Positions 3,779 through 36,183 of a DNA stretch of 36,183 nucleotides are shown here, in pieces. Position numbers and translations under genes: made by a program. Origin of the DNA: a virus (lineage: Duplodnaviria; Heunggongvirae; Uroviricota; Caudoviricetes); IMG/VR virus record IMGVR_UViG_2551306525_000009; one strand, written 5' to 3'. The notes below the pieces were generated by a model. The model saw only the letters and a list, made by a program, of their open reading frames with translations, ran no database searches and was not told where the DNA came from. Numbering within the stretch: the first letter of the stretch is position 1; every line of letters starts with the position of its first letter.

Positions 3779-4144
3779 ATGAAAGAGACGAAAAACATCG
3801 ATACCGAAAACACGGTAGTTGCTGACACTGTGAAAGAAACCAGTGAGCGTGGCGTAAAACTTACCCAACCCATTGAGCGAGGCGGCGAAAAAATCATGTA
3901 TGTGGAGATCACCGGGGCTATTGAGCAGGCTGGATCTCTGCGAGATTTGTCGCTGTCTGATGTGCTGAATCTGAAAGCGGAATCCATGTTTACGCTGCTG
4001 TCACGCGTGACATCACCGCGACTGGATGAAGTGACGATCAAAAAAATGGCATCCCGTGACTTTATTCAGTTATGTGTGGTTGCCGTAAATTTTTTGAGCG
4101 GTGCGGACTCTGGCGGGAAGAACGAACAGGCGACGGAAGCCTGA
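3779..4144 (+). CDS. E: tail assembly chaperone E
   Basis: 121 aa ORF between tube and tape measure; contains slippery heptamer near its 3' end. Confidence 0.8.
   Translation: MKETKNIDTENTVVADTVKETSERGVKLTQPIERGGEKIMYVEITGAIEQAGSLRDLSLSDVLNLKAESMFTLLSRVTSPRLDEVTIKKMASRDFIQLCVVAVNFLSGADSGGKNEQATEA
4090..4096 (+). other. programmed -1 ribosomal frameshift slippery heptamer T_TTT_TTG
   Basis: heptamer in the zero frame of E (codons TTT TTG); the -1 frame stays open to 4308. Confidence 0.7.
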
Positions 4145-4308
4145 TCACGGTTGTGTGCTTTGAGCACATAGAAGACTTTGTGGCAGATATTGCCGTTATT
4201 TTTAACTGGTCGCCCGCCGAAATCTTCATGATGACGCCCGGCGAAGTGGTTAGCTGGCGTGAGCGGGCGGCACTTCGCAGCGGGAATGCAGACAATGAAG
4301 ACTCTTGA
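4095..4308 (+). CDS. E': E' extension of the E+E' frameshift product (tail assembly chaperone fusion)
   Basis: -1 frame from slippery site translates ERCGLWREERTGDG...NEDS, equal to the ORF-track 4072..4308 frame; conserved E/E' (lambda G/GT-like) arrangement. Confidence 0.7.
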
Positions 4309-7102
4309 TATCCGGGTCGCTTTCAGCGCCGTTGACAGGCTGACCCGACCTGCCGAAAACGCCCGCCGCCTGATGGGGCAGTTTGGTGACTCCATCCAGC
4401 GAACGCAGGGGGCGATCAAAAATCTCGAGCGTCAGGCGCGTTCATTTGAGCGCGCCCGCGACGCTGTCAGTAAAGCGGATGCGGGTATCGTGAAAGCGCG
4501 ACGCCAGCTTAACGCCCTTAATCAGTTACAACGCACGGGTACAGTGCTCAGCGAAAAACAACAAAAGCTGATGCAGCAGTTAAGCACCCGGCTTGAACGC
4601 CTGAATGAATCGCGCACACGGGAAATTCAGAAAATGCGGGAGCTTGGCGGAGAGCTGAAACGCCACGGCATTTCCCTGACAGGCAGCGATAACACCATCC
4701 AGCAGGCCATCAGACGCACCGAACAGTACAACAACCAGCTTGAACGCGAACGGCAGGCGCTTGCGCGTGTAACGCGGGCGCGTGAGCGGTATTCGCGCGT
4801 GCAGGAAACCGCGGGAAAACTGAAAACAGGTGGTGCGCTGGCAATTGGTGCGGCAGCGGCTGGCGGCTATGCTGCCGGGCGTTTTTTGCAGCCTGCGATC
4901 GGGTTCGGCAAAGAGATGTCCCGCGTTCAGGCACTGACGCGAATCGACCAGAACAGCCCGCAGTTTAAGGCGCTGCGTGAGCAGGCGTTAAAACTTGGCT
5001 CTGAAACGCAGTTCACCGCAGGCGATGCCGCCAGTGGGCAGGCATTTCTTGCAATGGCTGGCTTCACTCCGCAGGCCATTCAGGCTGCGCTTCCCGGCGT
5101 GCTGAGCATGGCAACGGCTGGCGGCATGGATCTCGGCGAGACGGCGGATATTGGCTCAAATATCCTGACGCAGTTCGGCCTTTCTGCTGACCAGATGGAC
5201 CGGGTCGGTGACACACTCACCGCAGCGTTTACCCGTACCAACACTGACCTTCGCGCACTGGGCGAAACCATGAAATATGCAGGTCCGGTTGCGGGTAAGC
5301 TGGGAATATCGCTGGAGCAGGCCGCAGCGATGGCTGGCGTGCTGGCGAATATGGGCATCAGAGGGAGTGATGCCGGGACGGCAATGCGTGCCAGCCTGGC
5401 TCGTCTGGCATCACCGCCAAAGGCAGCAGCAGAGGCGCTGAAAGAGCTTGGTGTGGCAGTCTCTGACGCGAACGGCAAAATGCGCCCGATGGAGGATGTG
5501 CTGGCCGACCTTTATAAAGCCACCCGCAAATACGGGGAAGTTGACCGGGTATCGTTCTTTAAGGACATTGCCGGGGAAGAGGCTTTCACATCGTTTATGG
5601 CGCTCGTTGATGCAGCGGGTGACGGTTCCTTACCTAAACTGAGAAAAGAACTTGAAGGCGCGCGCGGTGAGGCTGAACGCACAGCAAAGGTCATGGCCAA
5701 CAACCTTGACGGCGATCTGAAATCACTCGGCAGTGCATGGGAAGGGTTGCGCATCCGCATTGCAGATCTGATTGACGGTCCGCTGCGTTCTGTCACGCAG
5801 TGGCTCACGCGGGTGGTATCAAGGGTGACGGCGCTGGCGCAGGCCCATCCGGCACTGACGCGCCAGCTACTGATAGCAGGCGGTGCGTTGCTGGCAATGA
5901 CTGCAACGGTTGGCTCGTTGTCGCTGGCTATTGGTGTGCTTGCTGGTCCGCTGGCAAAACTGCGTCTTGGTTTTTCTCTCCTGACCGGATCAATGAATGC
6001 TGTCAGGGTCCTGCCAGCACTATGGGGAATGGTGACGGGTTCCGTTTCTTTACTGGGAGGCGCTATCGGGGCGCTGTTCAGCCCGGTTGGTCTTATCGTG
6101 GCTGCGCTTGCCGGAGCTGCCGTCCTTATCTGGAAATACTGGGATCCCATCAGGGCATTTTTTGCCGGGGTGTTCAGCGGGATTATGGAAAGGCTGACCC
6201 CGTTGCGCGAAACCTTTGAACGGTTTGGTCCTGTTTTTGACGCAATCGGAAGCGGGATAAGCCAGGTGTTTAACTGGTTTAAATCGCTGCTGTCACCGAT
6301 GGAGTCCAGCAAGGAAACGCTGGATAAATGTACCAGTGCTGGCGAGATATTCGGTAACGTTCTTGGCGGTGCGTTACAACTTGTTCTGACACCTGCAAAA
6401 ATGTTGCTGGATACGCTGGCGTGGATACTTGAAAAGCTCGGTGTGCTTCCGGATGAAGCGGAAAGGGCGCGCAAGAAAATCGAAGACGCACAGCGTGCGG
6501 CCATTCTTCAGGACAAGGTTGCCTGGCTTCAGGGGGACCTGGCGAAAATCAATCCGCCGAAGCCTGTGGAAAATGGCAATGGCACCGGAGGTGATAAACC
6601 CAAAGACAACAAACCACTCACAGACAGCAATACCGGTACGCTACGCAGACTCAGCAAAATTGCTGATAACACAGGTAAGCTGGTTGATGAGACGAAAAAA
6701 CGCATTGGCCCCGGCGATATTGTCTTTAAGAACCTGCCCCGCGCACTTGCTGTTCGTGGGGAGTGGCAGGAGCGGAAGATTGCGCAGGTCAGTAAGCCTG
6801 CTTCCGCAATCAATATCACACCCGTGGTCCAGACTCCTCTTCCTCCGGCGCTGGTCCCTGTTGTTGCGGCCAGCTCCCGCCCGGTGGCGGAGGCCATACG
6901 ATCGCCAGTGGCATCAGTTCCTGCAACTTCCCGTAACCGGGAGCCTGTTGTCTCCGGATTTGGCGGTGAAATTCATGTTCATCTGCATAACGTTGTTACG
7001 CAGAATCCCCGCGAACTGGCGAAACTGGTCGGTGAAATGGTCAGGGCAGAGGTGGAACGGCGTGCTCGTGCCGGACGTGGCAGTTTTTACGATAAAGATT
7101 GA
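4286..7102 (+). CDS. T: tail tape measure protein T
   Basis: ~940 aa, coiled-coil N-terminal region, hydrophobic Gly/Ala-rich central segment; between E' and U; start uncertain (GTG 4259, ATG 4286 or 4295). Confidence 0.85.
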   Translation: MQTMKTLDIRVAFSAVDRLTRPAENARRLMGQFGDSIQRTQGAIKNLERQARSFERARDAVSKADAGIVKARRQLNALNQLQRTGTVLSEKQQKLMQQLSTRLERLNESRTREIQKMRELGGELKRHGISLTGSDNTIQQAIRRTEQYNNQLERERQALARVTRARERYSRVQETAGKLKTGGALAIGAAAAGGYAAGRFLQPAIGFGKEMSRVQALTRIDQNSPQFKALREQALKLGSETQFTAGDAASGQAFLAMAGFTPQAIQAALPGVLSMATAGGMDLGETADIGSNILTQFGLSADQMDRVGDTLTAAFTRTNTDLRALGETMKYAGPVAGKLGISLEQAAAMAGVLANMGIRGSDAGTAMRASLARLASPPKAAAEALKELGVAVSDANGKMRPMEDVLADLYKATRKYGEVDRVSFFKDIAGEEAFTSFMALVDAAGDGSLPKLRKELEGARGEAERTAKVMANNLDGDLKSLGSAWEGLRIRIADLIDGPLRSVTQWLTRVVSRVTALAQAHPALTRQLLIAGGALLAMTATVGSLSLAIGVLAGPLAKLRLGFSLLTGSMNAVRVLPALWGMVTGSVSLLGGAIGALFSPVGLIVAALAGAAVLIWKYWDPIRAFFAGVFSGIMERLTPLRETFERFGPVFDAIGSGISQVFNWFKSLLSPMESSKETLDKCTSAGEIFGNVLGGALQLVLTPAKMLLDTLAWILEKLGVLPDEAERARKKIEDAQRAAILQDKVAWLQGDLAKINPPKPVENGNGTGGDKPKDNKPLTDSNTGTLRRLSKIADNTGKLVDETKKRIGPGDIVFKNLPRALAVRGEWQERKIAQVSKPASAINITPVVQTPLPPALVPVVAASSRPVAEAIRSPVASVPATSRNREPVVSGFGGEIHVHLHNVVTQNPRELAKLVGEMVRAEVERRARAGRGSFYDKD

Positions 7103-7108
7103 GGAGTC

Positions 7109-7603
7109 ATGGCCATGATGATGATCTACGGCATGTTTGTTTTTGAGCTGCGCACATTGCCGCATCAGCAGTTACAGCAAAACAAAAGCTGGCGGCATGT
7201 GAAAAATGAGCGCGTAAACCGCTCAGCAAGCTGGCAGTATATCGGTGCAGGTGATGATCGCATCGTGCTTTCTGGCGTGCTTTATCCTGAAATTACAGGT
7301 GGCGAAGTGTCGCTTTCGCTGCTGACCACGCAGGCATATACAGGACGCCCCTGGCCTCTGATTGATGGTGTCGGGCAGATTTACGGCATGTATGTACTGA
7401 CTGAAACGAATACGACCCGCTCCGAGTTTGATCGCTACGGTAAGGCGAAAAAGATAGAGTTTTCACTGACTCTTGAACGCTGTGATGAGGATTTGCGGGA
7501 GCGCCTGCAATCCTCATCGTTCAGTGATATGCTGTCCGGCTTCAAAGATAAGGTCACATCATCCCTTAACAGCGCGGCCAGCTCCGTTAAAGGGCTGTTT
7601 TGA
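7109..7603 (+). CDS. U: tail protein U
   Basis: similarity to P2 gpU (LSGVLYPEITGG, WPLIDG..IYGMYV, KIEFSLTLER blocks). Confidence 0.85.
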   Translation: MAMMMIYGMFVFELRTLPHQQLQQNKSWRHVKNERVNRSASWQYIGAGDDRIVLSGVLYPEITGGEVSLSLLTTQAYTGRPWPLIDGVGQIYGMYVLTETNTTRSEFDRYGKAKKIEFSLTLERCDEDLRERLQSSSFSDMLSGFKDKVTSSLNSAASSVKGLF

Positions 7604-7610
7604 TTAACGC

Positions 7611-7640
7611 AAAACCGCTAATGGTCAGATTAGCGGTTTT
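7611..7640. terminator. bidirectional rho-independent terminator between U and the invertase (AAAACCGCTAAT-ggtcag-ATTAGCGGTTTT)
   Basis: perfect 12-bp stem with 6-nt loop, T-run on plus strand; overlaps the invertase 3' end. Confidence 0.65.
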
Positions 7641-8230
7641 CATTTTCCTGAGTCTGCCTGGTTGTTTCTTCAGCCTGTATATCGCCTACAGGGTGATAAC
7701 GATAAATCGTCGATATGCCGATGTCGTAAATGATCGCCAGTTGTTTCCTGTCATGACCGTTTTTGATCAGCCTTGCTATTTGCTCATGCTGTTCTTTTGT
7801 CAGCTTCGGGCGACGTCCGCCTGTGCGCCCCCCGTGCGCGCGCTGCCGCCAGTCCGGCCAGTGTACGTTCAACAATTAATTCACGTTCCATTTCAGCCAG
7901 GGCACCCATAACGTGGAAGAAAAAACGCCCCATTGGAGAAGATGTATCTATGCTGTCGGTCAGACTGCGAAAATTAATCCCTCGCTCCCGTAGTTCCCCG
8001 ACGAGAGAAATCAGATGTTTCATGCTTCGCCCGAGGCGATCCAGTTTCCAGACAACCAGCGTGTCACCTTTTTGAAGCCGCTTTAAAGCGCGTTTTAATC
8101 CCGGTCGGTCTGTCTTTGTCCCGCTTAATTTATCTTCAAATATTTGTTCACATCCTGCGCAAACAAGAGCGTTTCGTTGCAGGTCTGTATTCTGGTCATT
8201 TGTTGATATCCTTACATAACCAATCAGCAC
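7630..8230 (-). pseudogene. Hin/Gin/Cin-family serine DNA invertase, reading frame broken by a +1 shift in a G6 tract (plus-strand C run 7828-7833)
   Basis: ORF 7784..8230 encodes the catalytic domain (GYVRISTNDQ...) and ORF 7630..7875 encodes the HTH C-terminus (GGRRPKL...IIYDIGISTIYR) in another frame; removing one G restores ARG-RTGGRRPKL. Confidence 0.8.
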
Positions 8231-8284
8231 ACTGAATCTCCCGTCCCAAAGCGCAAATCATGCCATGCAGGCCGGAAACGGCCA

Positions 8285-8312
8285 TTATCTAAAACCTCGG
8301 TTTGCAGGAAAC
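8285..8312 (+). repeat. left inversion crossover site (gix/hix-like) TTATCTAAAACCTCGGTTTGCAGGAAAC
   Basis: 26/28 match to the inverted copy at 11235-11262; resembles Gin/Hin crossover sites (from memory). Confidence 0.75.
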
Positions 8313-9198
8313 AGTAAACAAGGCTGGTAACGCCGTTCAGCGTTCCGGCGATAAAATGACCGGAGAGCTGAAAATTGGCACGGTGAATGCGCTGCGAATT
8401 TTCAATGATGCCTTCGGTCTTATTTTCCGTCGTTCAGAAGATTTTCTTCATTTCATTCCGACGGCTGAAGGACAAGGCGAAAACGGTGATATCGGCCCAT
8501 TAAGGCCATTCGCTATAAATCTGAGAACAGGTGCTATATCTGTCAGCCACGGGGCCAAAATTGAAGGAGGTCTAGCTATTGGAGCTACTGATAACGCACT
8601 GGGTGAAAACTCCATTGTTCTGGGAGATAACGACACCGGATTTAGGCAAGATGGAGATGGTATTATTAGCTTCTATTCAAATGGTTCGCGCATCGGACAT
8701 ATTGATGAGTTAGGGTTACATATTTATAAAGATATTGAATCTAATGGCAGCAATTTTAGATTAAAAGGTAATTACCGCCACCACATTACATTCGCCAACG
8801 AAGACGGAAGTATTCGTATGTTTTTGTGGAAAGATAAAGATGGTGATGGTGTTCATATTAATAATGGTTCAAGCGGTGGCGGTGATTTCGTTTTTAAAAC
8901 AGATGGGGGATTTGCGCTGGGAAGTGGTGCGCAAGTTGCGTCTAATGGCGATATTTATGGTTCAGTGTGGGAAAACAACTGGTTAAGCACATGGCTGCAT
9001 AATCATGTCGTTCGGGATATTCGTCTTGGCAGCATTGAATATAAAAACGTATGGCGCGACTCCGGCTTTGGCGATGCGTCAGGTTATGTTTTAACAGCCG
9101 CAATTAACAGCAATGCGGATGATATTGTCGACACTGTTGCCAGAAGGCCAATTCAGAAATTGATTGGGGGAATATGGTATAACGTGGGGAGTGTTTAA
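8302..9198 (+). CDS. alternative tail fibre C-terminal cassette (Sv'-like), no own start codon in the current orientation
   Basis: frame open through left gix site; begins LGLQETVNK..., same junction as H (LGLQETVNQ); C-terminus [19 protein letters not shown] parallels the H C-terminus. Confidence 0.75.
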
Positions 9199-9199
9199 G

Positions 9200-9727
9200 A
9201 TGATGCACCTGAAAAATATTAAGGCCGGGAATCCGAAAACACCGGAACAATACCAGCTAACTAAAAAAGCGGGCGTGGTATGGCTCTTTTGTGAAGATGG
9301 CAAAAACTGGTATGAGGAACAAAAGAATTTTCAGCCAGACACCATAAAAATTGCTTACGATGAGAACAACATCATCGTTGCTGTCAGTAAAGACGTTTCA
9401 ACTATTAATCCTGAAGGGCTAAGCATAGTTGAAGTTCCTGATATTACGGCAAATCGTCGCGCAGACAATAACGGAAAATGGATGTTTCTGGATGGTAAAG
9501 TAGTAAAGAGGGAATATACAGAACAGGAACTGCAACAACAGGCCGAATCACAAAAGGCCGCATTGCTTTCCGAAGCTGAATCAGTCATCCAGCCGCTGGA
9601 ACGCGCTGTCAGGCTGAATATGGCAACAGACGAGGAACGCACACGACTGGAAGCATGGGAACGCTACAGTGTTCTGGTCAGCCGTGTGGATACGGCAAAT
9701 CCTGAATGGCCACAAAAGCCTGAATAA
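9200..9727 (+). CDS. alternative tail fibre assembly chaperone (Tfa')
   Basis: [14 protein letters not shown]... paralogous to the Tfa at 9756..10289; ATG 1 nt after the Sv' stop. Confidence 0.8.
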
Positions 9728-9755: not shown

Positions 9756-10289
9756 TCATTCTGGTTGTTCGGGAAACGTTACTGGCAGGCTGGAAGTGTC
9801 TGTAGATTCGACTTTCTGCGCAAAGAGCATCCACTCTGTTAATTTTTGTTTATTCTCGTCGGAAATGATGCCCAGCCGTAGCTGTGAGTCCCATAGCTGG
9901 GTTTTATCCCTGACAAGTTGCAACAGGCTTTGCTTTTCATTTTCCGCTTGTTGCCTCTGCTCTTCCTCGGTACAAGTTCGCTTTATCACTACGCCATCTT
10001 TGAACATCCATTTCCCCGAAATATCAGCCCGGCGATTTGCTGTAATATCAGGTAATTCAACGACGCTTGCCCCCTCTGGATTAATTGCTGAAACATCCTT
10101 TTCAATGCAAATAATAACGCCGTTATGGTCATAGACCATTTTCAAAGTGTCTGGCTGGAAATTCTTTTGTTCCTCATACCAGTTTTTTCCATCATCTGAA
10201 TAAAGCCACTTAATGTTAAATTGCTTTGTTAGCTGGTACTGCTCCACTGTTTTAGGATTACCAGCGGTAATGTTTTTTAAGTGCATCAT
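9756..10289 (-). CDS. G: tail fibre assembly chaperone
   Basis: 177 aa, MMHLKNITAGNPKTVEQYQLT...; immediately downstream of the fibre gene. Confidence 0.85.
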   Translation of the reverse strand: MMHLKNITAGNPKTVEQYQLTKQFNIKWLYSDDGKNWYEEQKNFQPDTLKMVYDHNGVIICIEKDVSAINPEGASVVELPDITANRRADISGKWMFKDGVVIKRTCTEEEQRQQAENEKQSLLQLVRDKTQLWDSQLRLGIISDENKQKLTEWMLFAQKVESTDTSSLPVTFPEQPE

Positions 10290-10291
10290 AA

Positions 10292-12394
10292 TTAAATACT
10301 TCCCGCGTTATACCAAGTCCCATTAATGCAATACTGAATTGGCCTTGCCTGAGTTGTATCAATTAATTCATCACGGTTTCCGTTAACTGAACCCGTAACG
10401 ACATAACCTGACCTGTCAGACCAGCCGGGACCATTCCATGTCTGAACAGATGACAGACCGCCAAGGCGAATACCTGTAATAAACCTTGAGTTACATTCTG
10501 CCTGCGTATATGCACCAACATCTCCCGCAGAGGGTTTGCGGGTTGTGGTGTAAAACTCTGACCAGTCAGCTTCAAAGCCATAACCATCACGCGCTGAACG
10601 ATAAAAGATACCGCCATTTCTGTAATTCACGCGGAACTGTGCAGCAGGGCAACTCCCCGTATTCATATTGAAGTGGAGGATTAATGTCGATGCGCCACCA
10701 ATATTTGCGTTATAGACCCCGCTATTCCAGTTCCAGCCAACAGCTTTATCATTTCCGACAGTGCTTCCTGTTTGCCCTAAAGCAAATGCAGGTTGTTGAT
10801 TTTTCGTGTTGTAGTCTCGTCGCCAGCCAGGAGCATAAGCATCACCATGATTAATATAAGTGAATTGAGCGTTAGTAATTCCGCCACCGCTGGACGTGCT
10901 CGGCGTAGTAACGCGTATGGTCATTGCGCCGCGAGTGCCAATAACTTCCACCACAGCACCTGCAAGACAAATATTTCCGCAACCTGTATCTGTAATGACC
11001 TTATTATTTGCATAAGCCCATGAGCCTTTGCACATCCAGTAAGGATGGTTAAATGCTCCCTGACTCTCCAGCCACGAAATAAATTGCGCGGTTGTCCAGA
11101 CCTGACTATCGCCACCAATATTCAGCCATGAGCTATATGCGCGGCAGGCACCAATATTTTTGGTGAAGGTATCTTTTCCTGGAATATCTGCGCCGTTCTG
11201 GTTTTTCTGTAATGCGCCAGAAGCCTGATTTACCGTTTCCTGCAAACCGAGGTATTCGATAACGGCAGCAACGTTCGATTTCGCAAGAATATCCCGCCCG
11301 ACTTTTGTCAGGGTTGCCAGGCTGGCGACATCATTCCCCGTAAAATACGGAAACTTGTCTGCCGCAGTAGCAAGCCCGGCCAGCGCCGTCAGGGTGGCAT
11401 CTTTCGGTTGCTTACCCGCAAGCGCGTTAGTCATGGTGGTCGCAAAATTCGGGTCGTTGCCCAGCGCCGCCGCCAGCTCGTTCAGCGTGTTCAGTGCGTC
11501 AGGTGAAGAGTCTACAAGTGCGGCAATCGCGGCCATAACGAAAGCCGTGCTTGCGATTTGGGTATTATTCGTTCCCTGTTGTGCAGTTGGTGTTGTTGGC
11601 GTTCCGGTCAGTGCCGGGCTGTTTAATGGGGCTTTCTTGTTCGTTTCATCCATTACCGCCTTAACTGCTTTTGGTGTCGCTGCCAGCGTTTCAGACGTGC
11701 TGTTGGTTGCACTGCTGAGCTGGACTATCCCTTTTCGTGCCGTCGTGGCGTCCTGAGCGGTATATTTTCCGTTAGCCAGGTCATACGCGGCCTTAACCGC
11801 TTTCGGCGTTGCGGCCAGCGTTTCAGAATCGCTGTTAGTGGCGCTACTGAGTTGAACAAAGCCTTTTGCGGTCAGCGAGGCGTCCGGGTGACGTCGTGAC
11901 TGTTCATGCTCTTTCAGTTTGTCATCCACGTAATCCACTGTGGCCATCACCATGGTGTTATCCACGGTAAGCGCCACGGTGGCAGTGCTGGATACGGTCA
12001 GAATGGTGCGAAATGTTTGTGCACGACCGGACCCTTCGGCAACGGCTGGCTTGTAACTTTCGGCAGTATTGCCCACCGCGATTAAATCGCCGTGCTCATC
12101 AAATACACCAATTTCCCGGATCCAGAATCCGCCCGTTTCAGGAGGAATAACCAGCTCCGCAATAATGCGGTTCTGATGTGTTGCGTCCAGGATGACGCGA
12201 TTAACAGTGTGTCGCCACACCTCATGCACCAGACGGGTCTGCTTACTGTCTGGTGTGGGCAACGTGCCGCCACCGTCGCCCACGGCCATATGAGTCAGGC
12301 GGACAGGCTTACCATCTGGCGCGGCTGCCTGAGCTAATTTTTTTGCACCCGTATCGGTGATAACGGTTTTAAATTTTCGTGTTGTGGTACTCAT
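10292..12394 (-). CDS. H: tail fibre protein (constant N-terminal part fused to the currently expressed variable C-terminal part)
   Basis: 700 aa; gix-like site embedded at the constant/variable junction (11235-11262). Confidence 0.85.
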   Translation of the reverse strand: MSTTTRKFKTVITDTGAKKLAQAAAPDGKPVRLTHMAVGDGGGTLPTPDSKQTRLVHEVWRHTVNRVILDATHQNRIIAELVIPPETGGFWIREIGVFDEHGDLIAVGNTAESYKPAVAEGSGRAQTFRTILTVSSTATVALTVDNTMVMATVDYVDDKLKEHEQSRRHPDASLTAKGFVQLSSATNSDSETLAATPKAVKAAYDLANGKYTAQDATTARKGIVQLSSATNSTSETLAATPKAVKAVMDETNKKAPLNSPALTGTPTTPTAQQGTNNTQIASTAFVMAAIAALVDSSPDALNTLNELAAALGNDPNFATTMTNALAGKQPKDATLTALAGLATAADKFPYFTGNDVASLATLTKVGRDILAKSNVAAVIEYLGLQETVNQASGALQKNQNGADIPGKDTFTKNIGACRAYSSWLNIGGDSQVWTTAQFISWLESQGAFNHPYWMCKGSWAYANNKVITDTGCGNICLAGAVVEVIGTRGAMTIRVTTPSTSSGGGITNAQFTYINHGDAYAPGWRRDYNTKNQQPAFALGQTGSTVGNDKAVGWNWNSGVYNANIGGASTLILHFNMNTGSCPAAQFRVNYRNGGIFYRSARDGYGFEADWSEFYTTTRKPSAGDVGAYTQAECNSRFITGIRLGGLSSVQTWNGPGWSDRSGYVVTGSVNGNRDELIDTTQARPIQYCINGTWYNAGSI
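11235..11262 (-). repeat. right inversion crossover site (gix/hix-like), reverse complement TTATCGAATACCTCGGTTTGCAGGAAAC
   Basis: inverted copy of the site at 8285-8312; lies inside the H reading frame at LGLQETVN. Confidence 0.75.
11658..11867. repeat. imperfect tandem duplication (period ~132 bp, 44 aa) within the constant part of the fibre gene
   Basis: GCCTTAAC(T/C)GCTTT...CCAGCGTTTCAGA... occurs twice; encodes the repeated VQLSSATNS.SETLAATPKAVKA motif. Confidence 0.6.
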
Positions 12395-24144: not shown

Positions 24145-24525
24145 TCAAAAAGAAGACTGGAACTCTTCTGCTCTGCGCTCAATTTCTGCCATGTAGGATG
24201 TACGGGCTAACTCATGCGCATTGGGTGTCATAATGCTGATTAGCTGATACTTATCTGGATATAAGAAATGGCGGGAGTAAACAAGATAACTGTTTGATTT
24301 ACGCGAGGCGGCAGGTAGCTTTGCAGGCCACGGCTGTTCATCAGGTAAACGAATGTGAATCTTAAAAACAAAAGAATCACGAAGACGCCCGCTATCTTCC
24401 CACTGCCCTTCGTTGCCAAAGACTGAGGGTAAAGATCCGCCGTTTTTCCATGACTGCAAAGCATGTGCATATTTGCGAGCAACTGCGGGGAGTTCTATGT
24501 CATTGTGGACAGAGACTTTAATCAT
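24145..24525 (-). CDS. YafO-like toxin-domain protein
   Basis: 126 aa; C-terminal LISIMTPNAHELAR...AEEF resembles E. coli YafO (LIAILKPEPHKLAR...AEAF, from memory); also SLPSVFG vs VLPDIFG and SYLVYS vs AHLVYC. Confidence 0.5.
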   Translation of the reverse strand: MIKVSVHNDIELPAVARKYAHALQSWKNGGSLPSVFGNEGQWEDSGRLRDSFVFKIHIRLPDEQPWPAKLPAASRKSNSYLVYSRHFLYPDKYQLISIMTPNAHELARTSYMAEIERRAEEFQSSF

Positions 24526-24534
24526 GGCCCTGCC

Positions 24535-25128
24535 TTAATGGAACGTTGGATCTTTAAGGCCCAGCTTTTTATGTTCACTGCGGATAAGTGCGCGAACCTG
24601 ATCGGCGGTAACACCCAGATCAGCATCTGAAGTTTTCTTCGGCACATGCGTGCTTTCAATGAAGGATAAAATATCTTCAATCGTATAGCGGAGCGTCGCA
24701 GCGGAACGAGCAAAAGCGACAATCTCTTTTCTCAGTTCCGCGTTACTTTCAGGTACGCTTTTCAGCGCAACCCTTGCAGCCTCGACAAAACTTGCACATA
24801 CCGCAATATGACGGAAAAGGCTTTCAAACCCTTCCTGAGTCTCTTTTTTCTGATTTTTCAGAATAATAGGGATCTGCTTTTCTTCCCATTCGATGCGAAG
24901 GTTTGCCCTGTGTGTCTTCATCCTATCAGCCAGGTTAAGCATATAACTGGTGGCCTCATCAATAGGAAGGTATGCCACAGAATCCTTTACGTCCTGGAGG
25001 GATAGCGTAGACGTACTGTGCCGGGAGATTGATAAGTCATGATGCACAATGCTACTGGCAGGAACAGGGGCGAGAGCCACCGCCAGCGCTGCGGCCATAG
25101 ATGTTATTTTATTTTTTTTACTGCTCAT
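24535..25128 (-). CDS. hypothetical protein, 197 aa, N-terminus resembles a signal peptide or TM anchor (MSSKKNKITSMAAALAVALAPVPASS)
   Basis: ORF with GGAAAGG RBS; 9 nt upstream of the YafO-like gene; not recognisable as YafN/RelB-type antitoxin. Confidence 0.55.
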   Translation of the reverse strand: MSSKKNKITSMAAALAVALAPVPASSIVHHDLSISRHSTSTLSLQDVKDSVAYLPIDEATSYMLNLADRMKTHRANLRIEWEEKQIPIILKNQKKETQEGFESLFRHIAVCASFVEAARVALKSVPESNAELRKEIVAFARSAATLRYTIEDILSFIESTHVPKKTSDADLGVTADQVRALIRSEHKKLGLKDPTFH

Positions 25129-25217
25129 AATTGCCTTTCCTGCCAATAATCGTGAACCACTGCCGGAATGATAGCGCAAAAAATCACCCGCTGAAACGAA
25201 TTATCCTTGCGGCAAAA

Positions 25218-26284: not shown

Positions 26285-26596
26285 TTATTCGGGAAATAAC
26301 GCCCGGATATTTCTGGCCATCTGACTGGTTATCTGTGCGGTTGATACTGGCTGTGACGCGGGGCGTTCTGTCCTGGTTTGTGTCACCGATAACGCCTCAT
26401 CGTCAGCCCATGCAGCCAGTCGGTAAGCCTCTGCCGGATTCATTTTCAGAAGTGCCAGCCCGGCCAGAAAAGCCACGCGTTGGCCGCTTTTGCGGGCTTC
26501 TGGTGTAAGGCTGTCCAGCCAGGCGCATGCTTCGCCTTCGTTCTTGACGGCGGCGGGCTTCAGATAGAAACTTATCCGTCTGGTTGGTGTCGTCAT
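26285..26596 (-). CDS. parR: ParR-like ribbon-helix-helix centromere-binding protein
   Basis: RRISFYLKP...LDSLTPEARKSGQRVAFLAGLALLKMNP...IRALFPE parallels plasmid R1 ParR (from memory); AGGAG RBS. Confidence 0.7.
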   Translation of the reverse strand: MTTPTRRISFYLKPAAVKNEGEACAWLDSLTPEARKSGQRVAFLAGLALLKMNPAEAYRLAAWADDEALSVTQTRTERPASQPVSTAQITSQMARNIRALFPE

Positions 26597-26600
26597 TGGT

Positions 26601-27560
26601 TTACTCCTTGTCCATTGCGTACAGCCCATTAACCAGAGCAAACTGTGGCACCCCGTCCGCGATGAAAGTCGCATTAACTCCGCAGGCTTCGCGGATAGCG
26701 GGTGCCACAATCTCCGCCCCTCCACCGACAACCATCACCCGCCCGTAACCCGAAAAACCCGCCAGCGCGCGGATCACGCGTTGTTTCAGTGTTTCTTCCT
26801 TTTCACGAATAACCTCCATCAGGCTGGCGTAATGCGCGTCATTGTGGATGTGCTGGCGCAGCCAGGCTTCATTATGGCGATGTTCGATAATGGTATTGGC
26901 GATGTGGTGACTGGTGCGCATACCGTTAGTGGCCATCACCGACAGTACGGCATCGGCCATCAGAGAAACGCCTACGTGTGGATCGCAAAACACCTGGCTG
27001 ATACCTGCCAGTTGCCCCTGAACCTTTGCCACATCCAGCGTGGTTCCGCCCAAATCTACAATCAGCAGGGATTCAAACGGACTCATGTCAGCCAGTGCCT
27101 TAAAGCCAGCCGGAATGGATTCAGGCATAACCCGCACGTTACGGATAGTGAATGCTTCGCCGTTCTGGTACTCCACCGGGCGCATAACGTTCGCTTTTTT
27201 GCGGTTGATGTTGGCCATGTCCGGCTGTGCGTTTGTGTCGAAATACTCGCTCAGTGGCAGGGTGACAACCACATCCACCTCCTGTGGCGTGATGCCTGAT
27301 TTGACCAGCGCGTGATGAATGGCAATGACATTCACATCGCTGTACTGGTATTGCGTGTCGGTCGTCTGGACAAAGCGATCGCTGACCGGATCAAAACCAT
27401 AGCGCACGCCATCAAGCATGTAGTTCGCAGGCTGCGAGCCACCGAACGGCGCAGACCATTCCGACTTGAAGCTGTTCGGGCTGATGGCGTTGCGGCGTTC
27501 GCCGTTCTCAGTCCATGCCAGCTTGATGTTGGTGGAGCCGTCGTCGATACAAATTTTCAT
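26601..27560 (-). CDS. parM: ParM/StbA-family actin-like segregation ATPase
   Basis: MKICIDDGSTNIKL (phosphate-1), LIVDLGGTTLDV (phosphate-2), VVGGGAEIV (adenosine) motifs; 319 aa. Confidence 0.8.
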   Translation of the reverse strand: MKICIDDGSTNIKLAWTENGERRNAISPNSFKSEWSAPFGGSQPANYMLDGVRYGFDPVSDRFVQTTDTQYQYSDVNVIAIHHALVKSGITPQEVDVVVTLPLSEYFDTNAQPDMANINRKKANVMRPVEYQNGEAFTIRNVRVMPESIPAGFKALADMSPFESLLIVDLGGTTLDVAKVQGQLAGISQVFCDPHVGVSLMADAVLSVMATNGMRTSHHIANTIIEHRHNEAWLRQHIHNDAHYASLMEVIREKEETLKQRVIRALAGFSGYGRVMVVGGGAEIVAPAIREACGVNATFIADGVPQFALVNGLYAMDKE

Positions 27561-34729: not shown

Positions 34730-34824
34730 GTGATAATCTCCCTGTTTGGGGTATTTCTTGCGACGGATGCCCCAAATCAAACTCATTTGTATAAACATTA
34801 ATACAGACGTTGGAGAATTGCAAC
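34730..34824. promoter_or_regulatory. divergent early/repressor promoter-operator region (Pe/Pc) between cox and C
   Basis: 95-bp AT-rich intergenic region between divergent regulators; contains imperfect inverted repeat TTGGGGTAT...ATGCCCCAA. Confidence 0.5.
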
Positions 34825-35127
34825 ATGCGTATGACTATTGGAGAGCGCATAAAAATCATGCGTGAAAGCGAGAGACTTACTAGCCTCCCGGATACAGCAA
34901 AAATGCTTGGTTTAAACCGTGATGCTCTGTGGAGATATGAAAGCGGTAAAACTATCCCTAATGCTGAAGTAATTGAGCAAATACTAAACAACCCCAGATT
35001 TGAGAAATATGCGTTGTGGTTTATGACTGGAAAAATTGCGCCTGAATCCGGGCAGATAGCTCCGGCTCTCGCACACTATGGGCAAGAACCAACGGATTTA
35101 CCCCCATCCGAAAGGAAAATTGGTTAA
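34825..35127 (+). CDS. C: immunity repressor C
   Basis: WFMTGKIAPESGQIAPALAHYGQ near-identical to the P2 C C-terminal region (from memory); GGAG RBS. Confidence 0.85.
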   Translation: MRMTIGERIKIMRESERLTSLPDTAKMLGLNRDALWRYESGKTIPNAEVIEQILNNPRFEKYALWFMTGKIAPESGQIAPALAHYGQEPTDLPPSERKIG

Positions 35128-35193
35128 CCCTTTATTATTCTTACATTTTACAAACTGGAAATGTCTTTCCTCGTTTCACCGGAGGGCTTGCCA

Positions 35194-36183
35194 ATGGCAA
35201 TTAAAGCACTCGATGGTGGACGGTATAAAGTGGATGTTAGACCGCGTGGCCGAAGTGGACGTCGGATTCAGCGGATTTTTAAGAAAAAGGCAGATGCAGT
35301 GGCCTTTGAGCGTTATGTTCTCAGCCACATGCACGATAAGGAATGGCTTGAAAAGCCAACAGAGCAACGTCATCTCTCAGATCTGCTTCCGTTATGGTGG
35401 GAATTGGGTGGACGCAATAAGCCATATGCTAACGGCGTTCTAACCAGGTTGAAAAAAATCATCAAAGAAATGAATGATCCAAGGGTTAGCCAGATTAATG
35501 CTCGTTTCATGGCCGCTTATCGAAGCTCCCGTTTATCCTTGGGAGTAAAAGAGTCTACTGTTCGGCGTGATGAGTCGGATCTCGGAGGAATGTTTACACT
35601 CCTAGCAAATGCCGGGGAATTTCACGGAGAAAATCCGCTCCGCGCCCTCCCCTCTTTGAAACGAAAATCACCCGAAATGACGTATCTCACCACGGAAGAA
35701 ATCGCCAAATTACTGGATGCAGTAAGCGGTGATGCCCGGCGGATTACGCTACTTTGTCTCAGTACTGGGGCGAGATGGGGAGAAGCGAAAAATCTGCGCG
35801 CGGAACACATCATCAATAATCGCGTGACGTTTAACAAAACTAAAAACGGAAAAGTTCGAATTATTCCTGTCTCTGATGAAGTTGTTAGTGAGATCAAAAC
35901 AAAGAAATCCGGCCTTTTGTTTGACGTCAATTATGAGGAATATCGCAAGGTGCTTCGCAGTGTTAAGCCAGACCTACCAAAAGGACAGGCTGTACATGTT
36001 CTACGCCATACCTTTGCTGCTCACTTTATGATTAATGGAGGAAATATACTTACGCTCCAGCGAATTATGGGGCACGCCACGATCCAGCAAACTATGACCT
36101 ATGCGCACCTCGCTCCTGATTTCCTCCAGGATGCAATTTCACTTAATCCGTTAAAAGGAGGCATCCACATTTCATCCACATAA
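35194..36183 (+). CDS. int: tyrosine integrase
   Basis: LDGGRYKVDVRP, RVTFNKTKNGK, HVLRHTFAAHFMINGG, TLQRIMGH..IQQTMTYAHLAP blocks as in P2 Int; GGAGGG RBS. Confidence 0.9.
   Translation: MAIKALDGGRYKVDVRPRGRSGRRIQRIFKKKADAVAFERYVLSHMHDKEWLEKPTEQRHLSDLLPLWWELGGRNKPYANGVLTRLKKIIKEMNDPRVSQINARFMAAYRSSRLSLGVKESTVRRDESDLGGMFTLLANAGEFHGENPLRALPSLKRKSPEMTYLTTEEIAKLLDAVSGDARRITLLCLSTGARWGEAKNLRAEHIINNRVTFNKTKNGKVRIIPVSDEVVSEIKTKKSGLLFDVNYEEYRKVLRSVKPDLPKGQAVHVLRHTFAAHFMINGGNILTLQRIMGHATIQQTMTYAHLAPDFLQDAISLNPLKGGIHISST

Follow-up and report, generated by a model that had tools for sequence, protein, structure and literature searches.

Site-specific inversion of phage and host segments flanked by Gin-family sites need not depend on an invertase gene located next to the segment. 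PinE inverts the G segment of Mu, PinQ and PinR invert the P segment of e14, and Fin of Fels-2 inverts the Salmonella H segment (PMC12529663; PMC4122451). The domain requirements of this family have been worked out for Hin, in which the C-terminal 52 residues make up the DNA-binding domain and removal of G139-R140 abolishes specific binding (PMC4122451). Fis activates Hin by contacts with the Hin DNA-binding domain, and the recombinational enhancer of that system lies ~100 bp from hixL (PMC3798978). Neither a frameshifted prophage invertase nor cross-complementation between such enzymes is a new idea; what is specific to the locus described here is a circulating gin-null allele, combined with comparative evidence for a flip of the tail-fibre segment after the lesion. 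The likeness to the PinE, PinQ/PinR and Fin systems is that a segment with Gin-family sites would be inverted by a paralogue encoded elsewhere. In those systems trans action was shown experimentally, whereas our argument for it comes from comparing natural isolates.

The locus lies in a 36,183-nt stretch of DNA (the window), which is a nearly complete prophage of the P88 type (Xuanwuvirus, P2 family), with a hok-like gene at one end and the integrase stop codon at the other. Compared with phage P88, the window shows 96.8% identity over 82% of a 24.9-kb query. The tail-fibre region is laid out as in Mu, with the constant part of the fibre, a site, Sv-U / U'-Sv', a second site, and the invertase, and the first ~450 nt of the invertase gene are 91 to 96% identical to gin of Mu and D108. 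Mu is a transposable phage, however, whereas the window is a P2-family (P88-like) myovirus, and the DNA-binding domain of its invertase is another variant than that of Mu Gin and is out of frame in the allele found here. The closest described relatives are the invertases of P88 and other Xuanwuvirus (e.g., WP_000905055.1 in E. coli ETEC1706), which likewise lie between gpU and the invertible fibre segment; their DNA is 93 to 99.6% identical to the window gene, and the window locus is orthologous to the P88 invertase. These copies carry a tract of five G (G5) and encode intact proteins of 195 to 199 aa, whereas the tract in the window has six (G6). By descent, the locus is a Gin/Hin/Cin/Pin invertase, and its G6 allele encodes no complete member of that family.

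Several other features of the window were recorded. The gpE gene (3779-4144) and the E' frame (4153-4305), which match P88 proteins at 97 to 100%, form a tail-chaperone pair of the P2 E/E+E' type, with a slippery TTTTTTG at 4091-4097 on the plus strand near the end of gpE. Like P88, the window has ParM-like and partition genes (26288-27560, minus strand). A YafO-toxin gene with a 208/214-aa partner lies between the portal and partition regions (24145-25179, minus strand), and the same cassette follows ogr at the right prophage end in L002 (18172-19178), L004, L005, and L007 to L009; because its position differs between these prophages and the window, it is a movable accessory cassette. Identity to the P88 counterparts is only 50% for the integrase and 42% for the C repressor (34810-36183, plus strand), so the integration/immunity module differs from that of P88. 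Between the converging invertase and gpU genes, at ~7608-7640, there is a perfect hairpin (AAAACCGCTAAT-ctgacc-ATTAGCGGTTTT) that resembles a bidirectional intrinsic terminator.

Table 1. Elements of the invertase gene and the invertible tail-fibre module (positions are those of the window)
Feature	Position	Strand	Description
Rest of invertase gene, original frame	7630..7827	-	RTGGRRPKL minor-groove arm, HTH_7 DNA-binding domain, TAA (7630-7632)
Truncated invertase ORF	7784..8230	-	GTG start, 148 aa and TGA; Resolvase catalytic domain with Ser9 and helix E
G6 homopolymer	7828..7833	-	G5 in relatives; frame change after Gly134
5' coding part of invertase	7960..8230	-	~96% identical to Mu gin over 270 nt
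Proximal gix-like site, TTATCTAAAACCTCGGTTTGCAGGAA	8285..8310	.	Central TC/GA; invertase side
Alternative tail-fibre C-terminal exon (Sv'-like)	8311..9198	+	Silent in the present orientation, intact
Tail-fibre assembly chaperone, 175 aa, Caudo_TAP	9200..9727	+	Partner of the silent exon
Tail-fibre assembly chaperone, 177 aa, Caudo_TAP	9756..10289	-	Belongs to the expressed orientation
Expressed tail-fibre gene, 700 aa	10292..12394	-	Constant N-terminal part 11263-12394
Distal gix-like site, TTCCTGCAAACCGAGGTATTCGATAA	11237..11262	.	Inverted relative to the proximal site, inside the tail-fibre gene

Reading the reverse complement of positions 7500 to 8400, we found six consecutive G on the minus strand at 7833-7828 (C6 on the plus strand), in the coding-strand context ...CTG GCG GCA GCG CGC GCA CGG GGG GCG CAC AGG CGG.... 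The initial annotation had described a Hin/Gin-family invertase with its halves in different frames, and this description is borne out by the open reading frames, by Pfam, and by tblastn. The 148-aa ORF has a C-terminal end reading ...AARARGAHRRTSPEADKRTA / ...LAAARARGAHRRTSPEADKRTA before its stop codon, with the last 14 residues out of frame, and the second-frame ORF (7630-7875, minus strand) holds ...RTGGRRPKLTKEQHEQIARL...ENENR / RTGGRRPKLTKEQHEQIARLIKNGHDRKQLAIIYDIGISTIYRYHP...ENENR and then a stop codon. The Resolvase domain (PF00239, 6.8e-50, residues 3 to 135) was found solely in the former and HTH_7 (3.3e-13) solely in the latter, and either the repaired protein or the P88 invertase as a tblastn query gave two high-scoring segment pairs in the window, in frames -3 and -1. 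The catalytic polypeptide of the G6 allele lacks the C-terminal HTH_7 domain and the GGR(R/P)PK arm, and the DNA-binding part is separate from it. With the serine-invertase domain limits used to place Gly134 (PMC3575834), the frame change falls at the end of helix E, just ahead of the minor-groove arm and the DNA-binding domain.

The further proposal that five G would restore a continuous ARG-RTGGRRPKL protein also holds. Removal of one G gives a 199-aa Gin orthologue in which Pfam finds both Resolvase and HTH_7, and which aligns with the Gin structures 4m6f and 3uj3 at ~1e-101 over residues 1 to 185; the Ser9 nucleophile is kept in VR(I/V)STNDQ in the alignment to 4m6f. In a 701-nt comparison with ETEC1706, the nearest complete E. 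coli genome, there were 2 substitutions and 1 gap, and the gap falls within the G run. Runs of six or more G or C are scarce, with only four in the 36-kb window. As a separate observation, the invertase (7780-8230, minus strand) is a mosaic relative to Mu (L040) and D108, with similarity ending at the boundary between helix E and the DNA-binding domain, adjoining the G tract.

The rest of the inversion module has its expected parts. The crossover coordinates 8285 and 11262 given in the initial annotation hold, each falling in one of two 26-bp, imperfectly palindromic gix-like sites that are inverted and have identical central dinucleotides. Two mismatches in 26 positions separate the proximal site from the gix copy that adjoins gin in Mu. 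Because the central dinucleotides of both sites match, the inversion substrate is competent. Inside the invertible segment lies the variable C-terminal part of the expressed fibre (10292-11236), and, as read from the sequence, inversion would join the alternative exon in frame to the constant part (…IEYLG|LQETVNKAG…). Both orientations of the segment occur among G5 relatives and among G6 carriers. Kahmann et al. reportedly placed the Mu sis enhancer inside gin in 1985, and the Mu-like 5' part of the window gene is the predicted location of a Fis-dependent recombinational enhancer. A search for a second invertase in the window found none.

It is possible to read a single extra base in a homopolymer as a sequencing or assembly error, with a true G5 sequence and an intact invertase, as the initial annotation did in one of its three alternatives. 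Homopolymer indels are a common artefact, and G6 is absent from all 91 complete E. coli genomes in which the 70-nt context occurs (out of 5426 searched); 28 rows at 98.6% identity in that search were all 69 nt long, which is G5 with no other change. An exact-sequence look-up, however, recovered the identical 148-aa product in at least 10 contigs from independent sequencing runs, comprising seven SRA runs assembled by Logan (one contig in four samples) and GCA_902840795.1. All eight of the loci that were fetched, which come from different runs, have G6 in identical context. Pattern scans in which G4 to G7 were allowed gave 31 matches on 30 contigs in IMG/VR, 30 of them G5 and one, on the isolate contig L028, G6; 13 matches in metagenome contigs, of which 12 were G5 and one (L047) was G6; and 0 matches in species-representative genomes. 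G6 is found in at least 12 independent public contigs overall, and its carriers belong to at least six different prophage genotypes, against about 130 relatives with G5.

The state of the surrounding genes also argues against an error. Every annotated P88 protein was translated and searched against the window with tblastn, and all homologues other than the invertase gave a single full-length match in one frame. Because the invertase is the sole P88 homologue split between frames, the window is not an assembly full of errors, and it is not a prophage in general decay. We judge a homopolymer error to be almost certainly the wrong explanation, and we dropped it because the exact-protein look-up and the pattern scans find G6 repeatedly. 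Since G6 recurs in independent contigs yet accounts for few matches in each collection, the allele is rare but real and heritable.

The G6 loci are closely related to one another at the invertase. In a 720-nt comparison, one haplotype was common to all of them; L009 has two synonymous changes within it, and L028 has a C-to-T change in the site and Val8 where the others have Ile8. Codon 8 (window 8209) adjoins the codon of catalytic Ser9; the G6 clade carries a Val8-to-Ile change there, Val is found in all 38 in-frame relatives, and L028 is the sole G6 copy that keeps it. The haplotype counts were 38 for V8/G5, 1 for V8/G6, and 8 plus the window for I8/G6, and none of the DNA sets had I8/G5. 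The most economical history runs from V8/G5 through V8/G6 to I8/G6, and the Val8-to-Ile change may have arisen after the invertase was already broken. A lone protein record, CCJ45108.1, has the in-frame form of the G6 haplotype, with I8 and G5. Reversion, recombination, or an error could account for this record, which may alternatively descend from an I8/G5 ancestor.

Beyond this block, the G6 prophages are diverse. Over about 1.8 kb around the invertase, from ~6650 to 8500, the I8/G6 loci do not differ; elsewhere they diverge by 1 to 2% in a patchy mosaic (tape measure, gpD, and baseplate), and L004 also has a swapped lysis gene. At least six genotypes can be told apart, namely, the window; L002, L006, and L008, which are the same; L004/L009, with L047 close to them; L005/L007; L003; and L028. 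The chromosomal flanks past the prophage end are of at least five mutually unrelated kinds, with serS next to L002, L008, and L009, rpmE/priA next to L004, a MIP-family gene next to L005, raiA/bamD next to L003, and a flank distinct from all of these next to L007. Because near-identical G6 prophages occupy different chromosomal sites (L004 versus L009 and L005 versus L007), the mutant phage has lysogenised repeatedly, which fits with gin-null Mu being viable. The finding of G6 on one haplotype block in at least six mosaic genotypes with at least five flanks argues that it is a single, recent, transmissible loss-of-function allele and no hypervariable switch. Two peculiarities of L004 (GCA_902840795.1) were also seen. 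At its match to window position 11748, an 8-nt insertion breaks the tail-fibre gene into two ORFs of 225 aa and 453 aa, and its endolysin is of the GH108 type instead of Peptidase_M15_4.

These distributions bear on the third alternative of the initial annotation, in which slippage in the tract turns host-range switching on and off. As a contingency locus, the tract would toggle reversibly between G5 and G6. If CCJ45108.1 is trusted, all four combinations of V8 or I8 with G5 or G6 exist, which calls for a single homoplasy or a single recombination within 376 nt. The tract is short, however, and its length was never G4 or G7 in the 44 pattern hits or the listed E. coli rows. G6 is also restricted to a single haplotype block, and we found no repeated, independent tract-length variation among close relatives (G6 in 0 of 91 E. 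coli, 1 of 31 IMG/VR, and 1 of 13 metagenome matches). On this evidence, a contingency locus is extremely unlikely.

A related possibility is that the G6 allele is leaky, making a little full-length invertase through +1 ribosomal or transcriptional slippage and inverting the segment slowly in cis. Re-pairing of the P-site tRNA-Gly from G3-G5 to G4-G6 would be perfect and would yield exactly ARG-RTGGRRPKL, and inversion did occur in the G6 lineage. The downstream HTH part is also free of substitutions in every G6 copy, but this is expected in a young allele. There is no known stimulator, the next codon (GCG) is common, and the A site has neither a stop nor a rare codon. A look for features of programmed ribosomal frameshifting at the tract found in-frame homologues (G5) and no stimulator evident in the sequence; relatives that are plainly in frame imply that there is no conserved programmed site. 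We consider leaky expression highly improbable. Taking both forms together, a tract that acts as a leaky or reversible attenuator, either by a +1 tRNA-Gly slip on CGG-GGG-G or by rare G6-to-G5 reversion, is very unlikely. If this were nonetheless true, CCJ45108.1 would be a revertant, and the lineage would have a much slower heritable flip rate and would not have lost switching.

We scored the orientation of the segment by orienting each locus on its invertase and recording the segment end that adjoins it. The window, L002 to L006, L008, and L009 have one arrangement ("proximal"), and L007 and L028 have the inverse ("distal"). The most informative pair is L005 and L007, which are both G6/I8 and in which the segment is inverted between the two. 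Their flanks differ at only 7 positions in 9483 nt (99.93% identity) and their segments at 4 positions in 1996 nt. In L007, the inner flank of the distal site is joined to the outer half of the proximal site, and the exchange maps to TTCCTGCAAACCGAGGT, a stretch of 17 nt that includes the central GA of the gix-like site. The two versions of the junction have just 19 identical bases in common. Logan assemblies use a k-mer of about 31; because the 19 nt shared by the junctions are shorter than this, it is unlikely that the orientation of L007 is an assembly artefact. Contig ends at the gix sites, which would be a sign of mixed orientations, were absent from the Logan contigs; their ends were at window positions ~8442 and ~9271-9330, inside conserved fibre/chaperone repeats. 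With sister G6 prophages in opposite orientations and the exchange at the crossover core, it is most likely that a site-specific inversion took place after the frameshift, in the G6 background.

It could instead be that the L005/L007 difference was produced by an intact invertase and that the G6 block was imported afterwards by homologous recombination. This would allow a fully locked pseudogene, with no inversion since the frameshift and with the orientation of L007 and L028 either predating G6 or resulting from import of the G6 block. Block exchange does occur, as the visible mosaicism of these prophages shows. When clones were collapsed, the ratio of "proximal" to "distal" was 5:2 for G6 genotypes and 2:8 for G5 relatives with the same segment (Fisher p about 0.06); in these small, non-independent samples, the skew hints weakly that the segment is largely frozen in the G6 clade and its orientation mainly inherited. 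Against a locked pseudogene, L005 and L007 are nearly identical, both G6/I8, and opposite in orientation, with the junction at the crossover core, and a flip catalysed in trans is a more parsimonious explanation than one of them having imported precisely the invertase block. We regard complete locking as unlikely.

The favored reading is that G6 is a natural, heritable G5-to-G6 knock-out of a gin-type invertase and that the segment has since flipped, likely by an invertase acting in trans, and we consider this probable. The extra G ends the original reading frame directly after helix E, giving a product that keeps the catalytic domain but has lost the minor-groove arm and the helix-turn-helix, so that it should not bind the crossover sites. 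What is known of Hin, Gin, and gamma-delta resolvase suggests that the invertase encoded by the phage is inactive. The rest of the module (both sites, both fibre C-termini, and both chaperones) is intact, and the Mu-like 5' part of the gene should still supply the predicted Fis enhancer in cis. The mutant phage is viable and has spread into several genetic backgrounds and chromosomal sites, and its segment seems to have flipped at least once within the mutant lineage.

From these comparisons, we infer that a Gin/Pin-family invertase from another prophage in the host probably catalyses the flip in trans. Potential sources are common: at least one Gin/Pin-family catalytic-domain homologue was present in 3748 of 5426 complete E. 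coli genomes (69%), with up to 7 per genome, annotated pinE among them. The second alternative of the initial annotation, an inactivating mutation that locks the fibre orientation unless another invertase acts in trans, is therefore the best supported of the three, and the sister prophages L005 and L007 suggest that its "unless" clause has been realised. A separate contig of 10.6 kb, L018 (IMGVR_UViG_2526164633_000021), has two G5 invertase copies in opposite orientation (74-100 and 3965-3991), each adjoining a fibre segment, and two such modules can consequently sit close together in one genome.

Taken together, the G6 allele is ordinary biology and changes no general concept. The G6 phage is a natural, circulating, gin-null P88-like phage, and annotators should leave G6 uncorrected and record it as a true pseudogene allele. 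For host-range prediction, the tail-fibre orientation seen in the assembly of a G6 lysogen is probably long-lived, not permanently fixed. The opposite orientations of L005 and L007 provide comparative evidence, short of proof, that the invertases of other prophages can service invertible tail-fibre segments, which is what laboratory work on PinE, PinQ, and Fin predicts.
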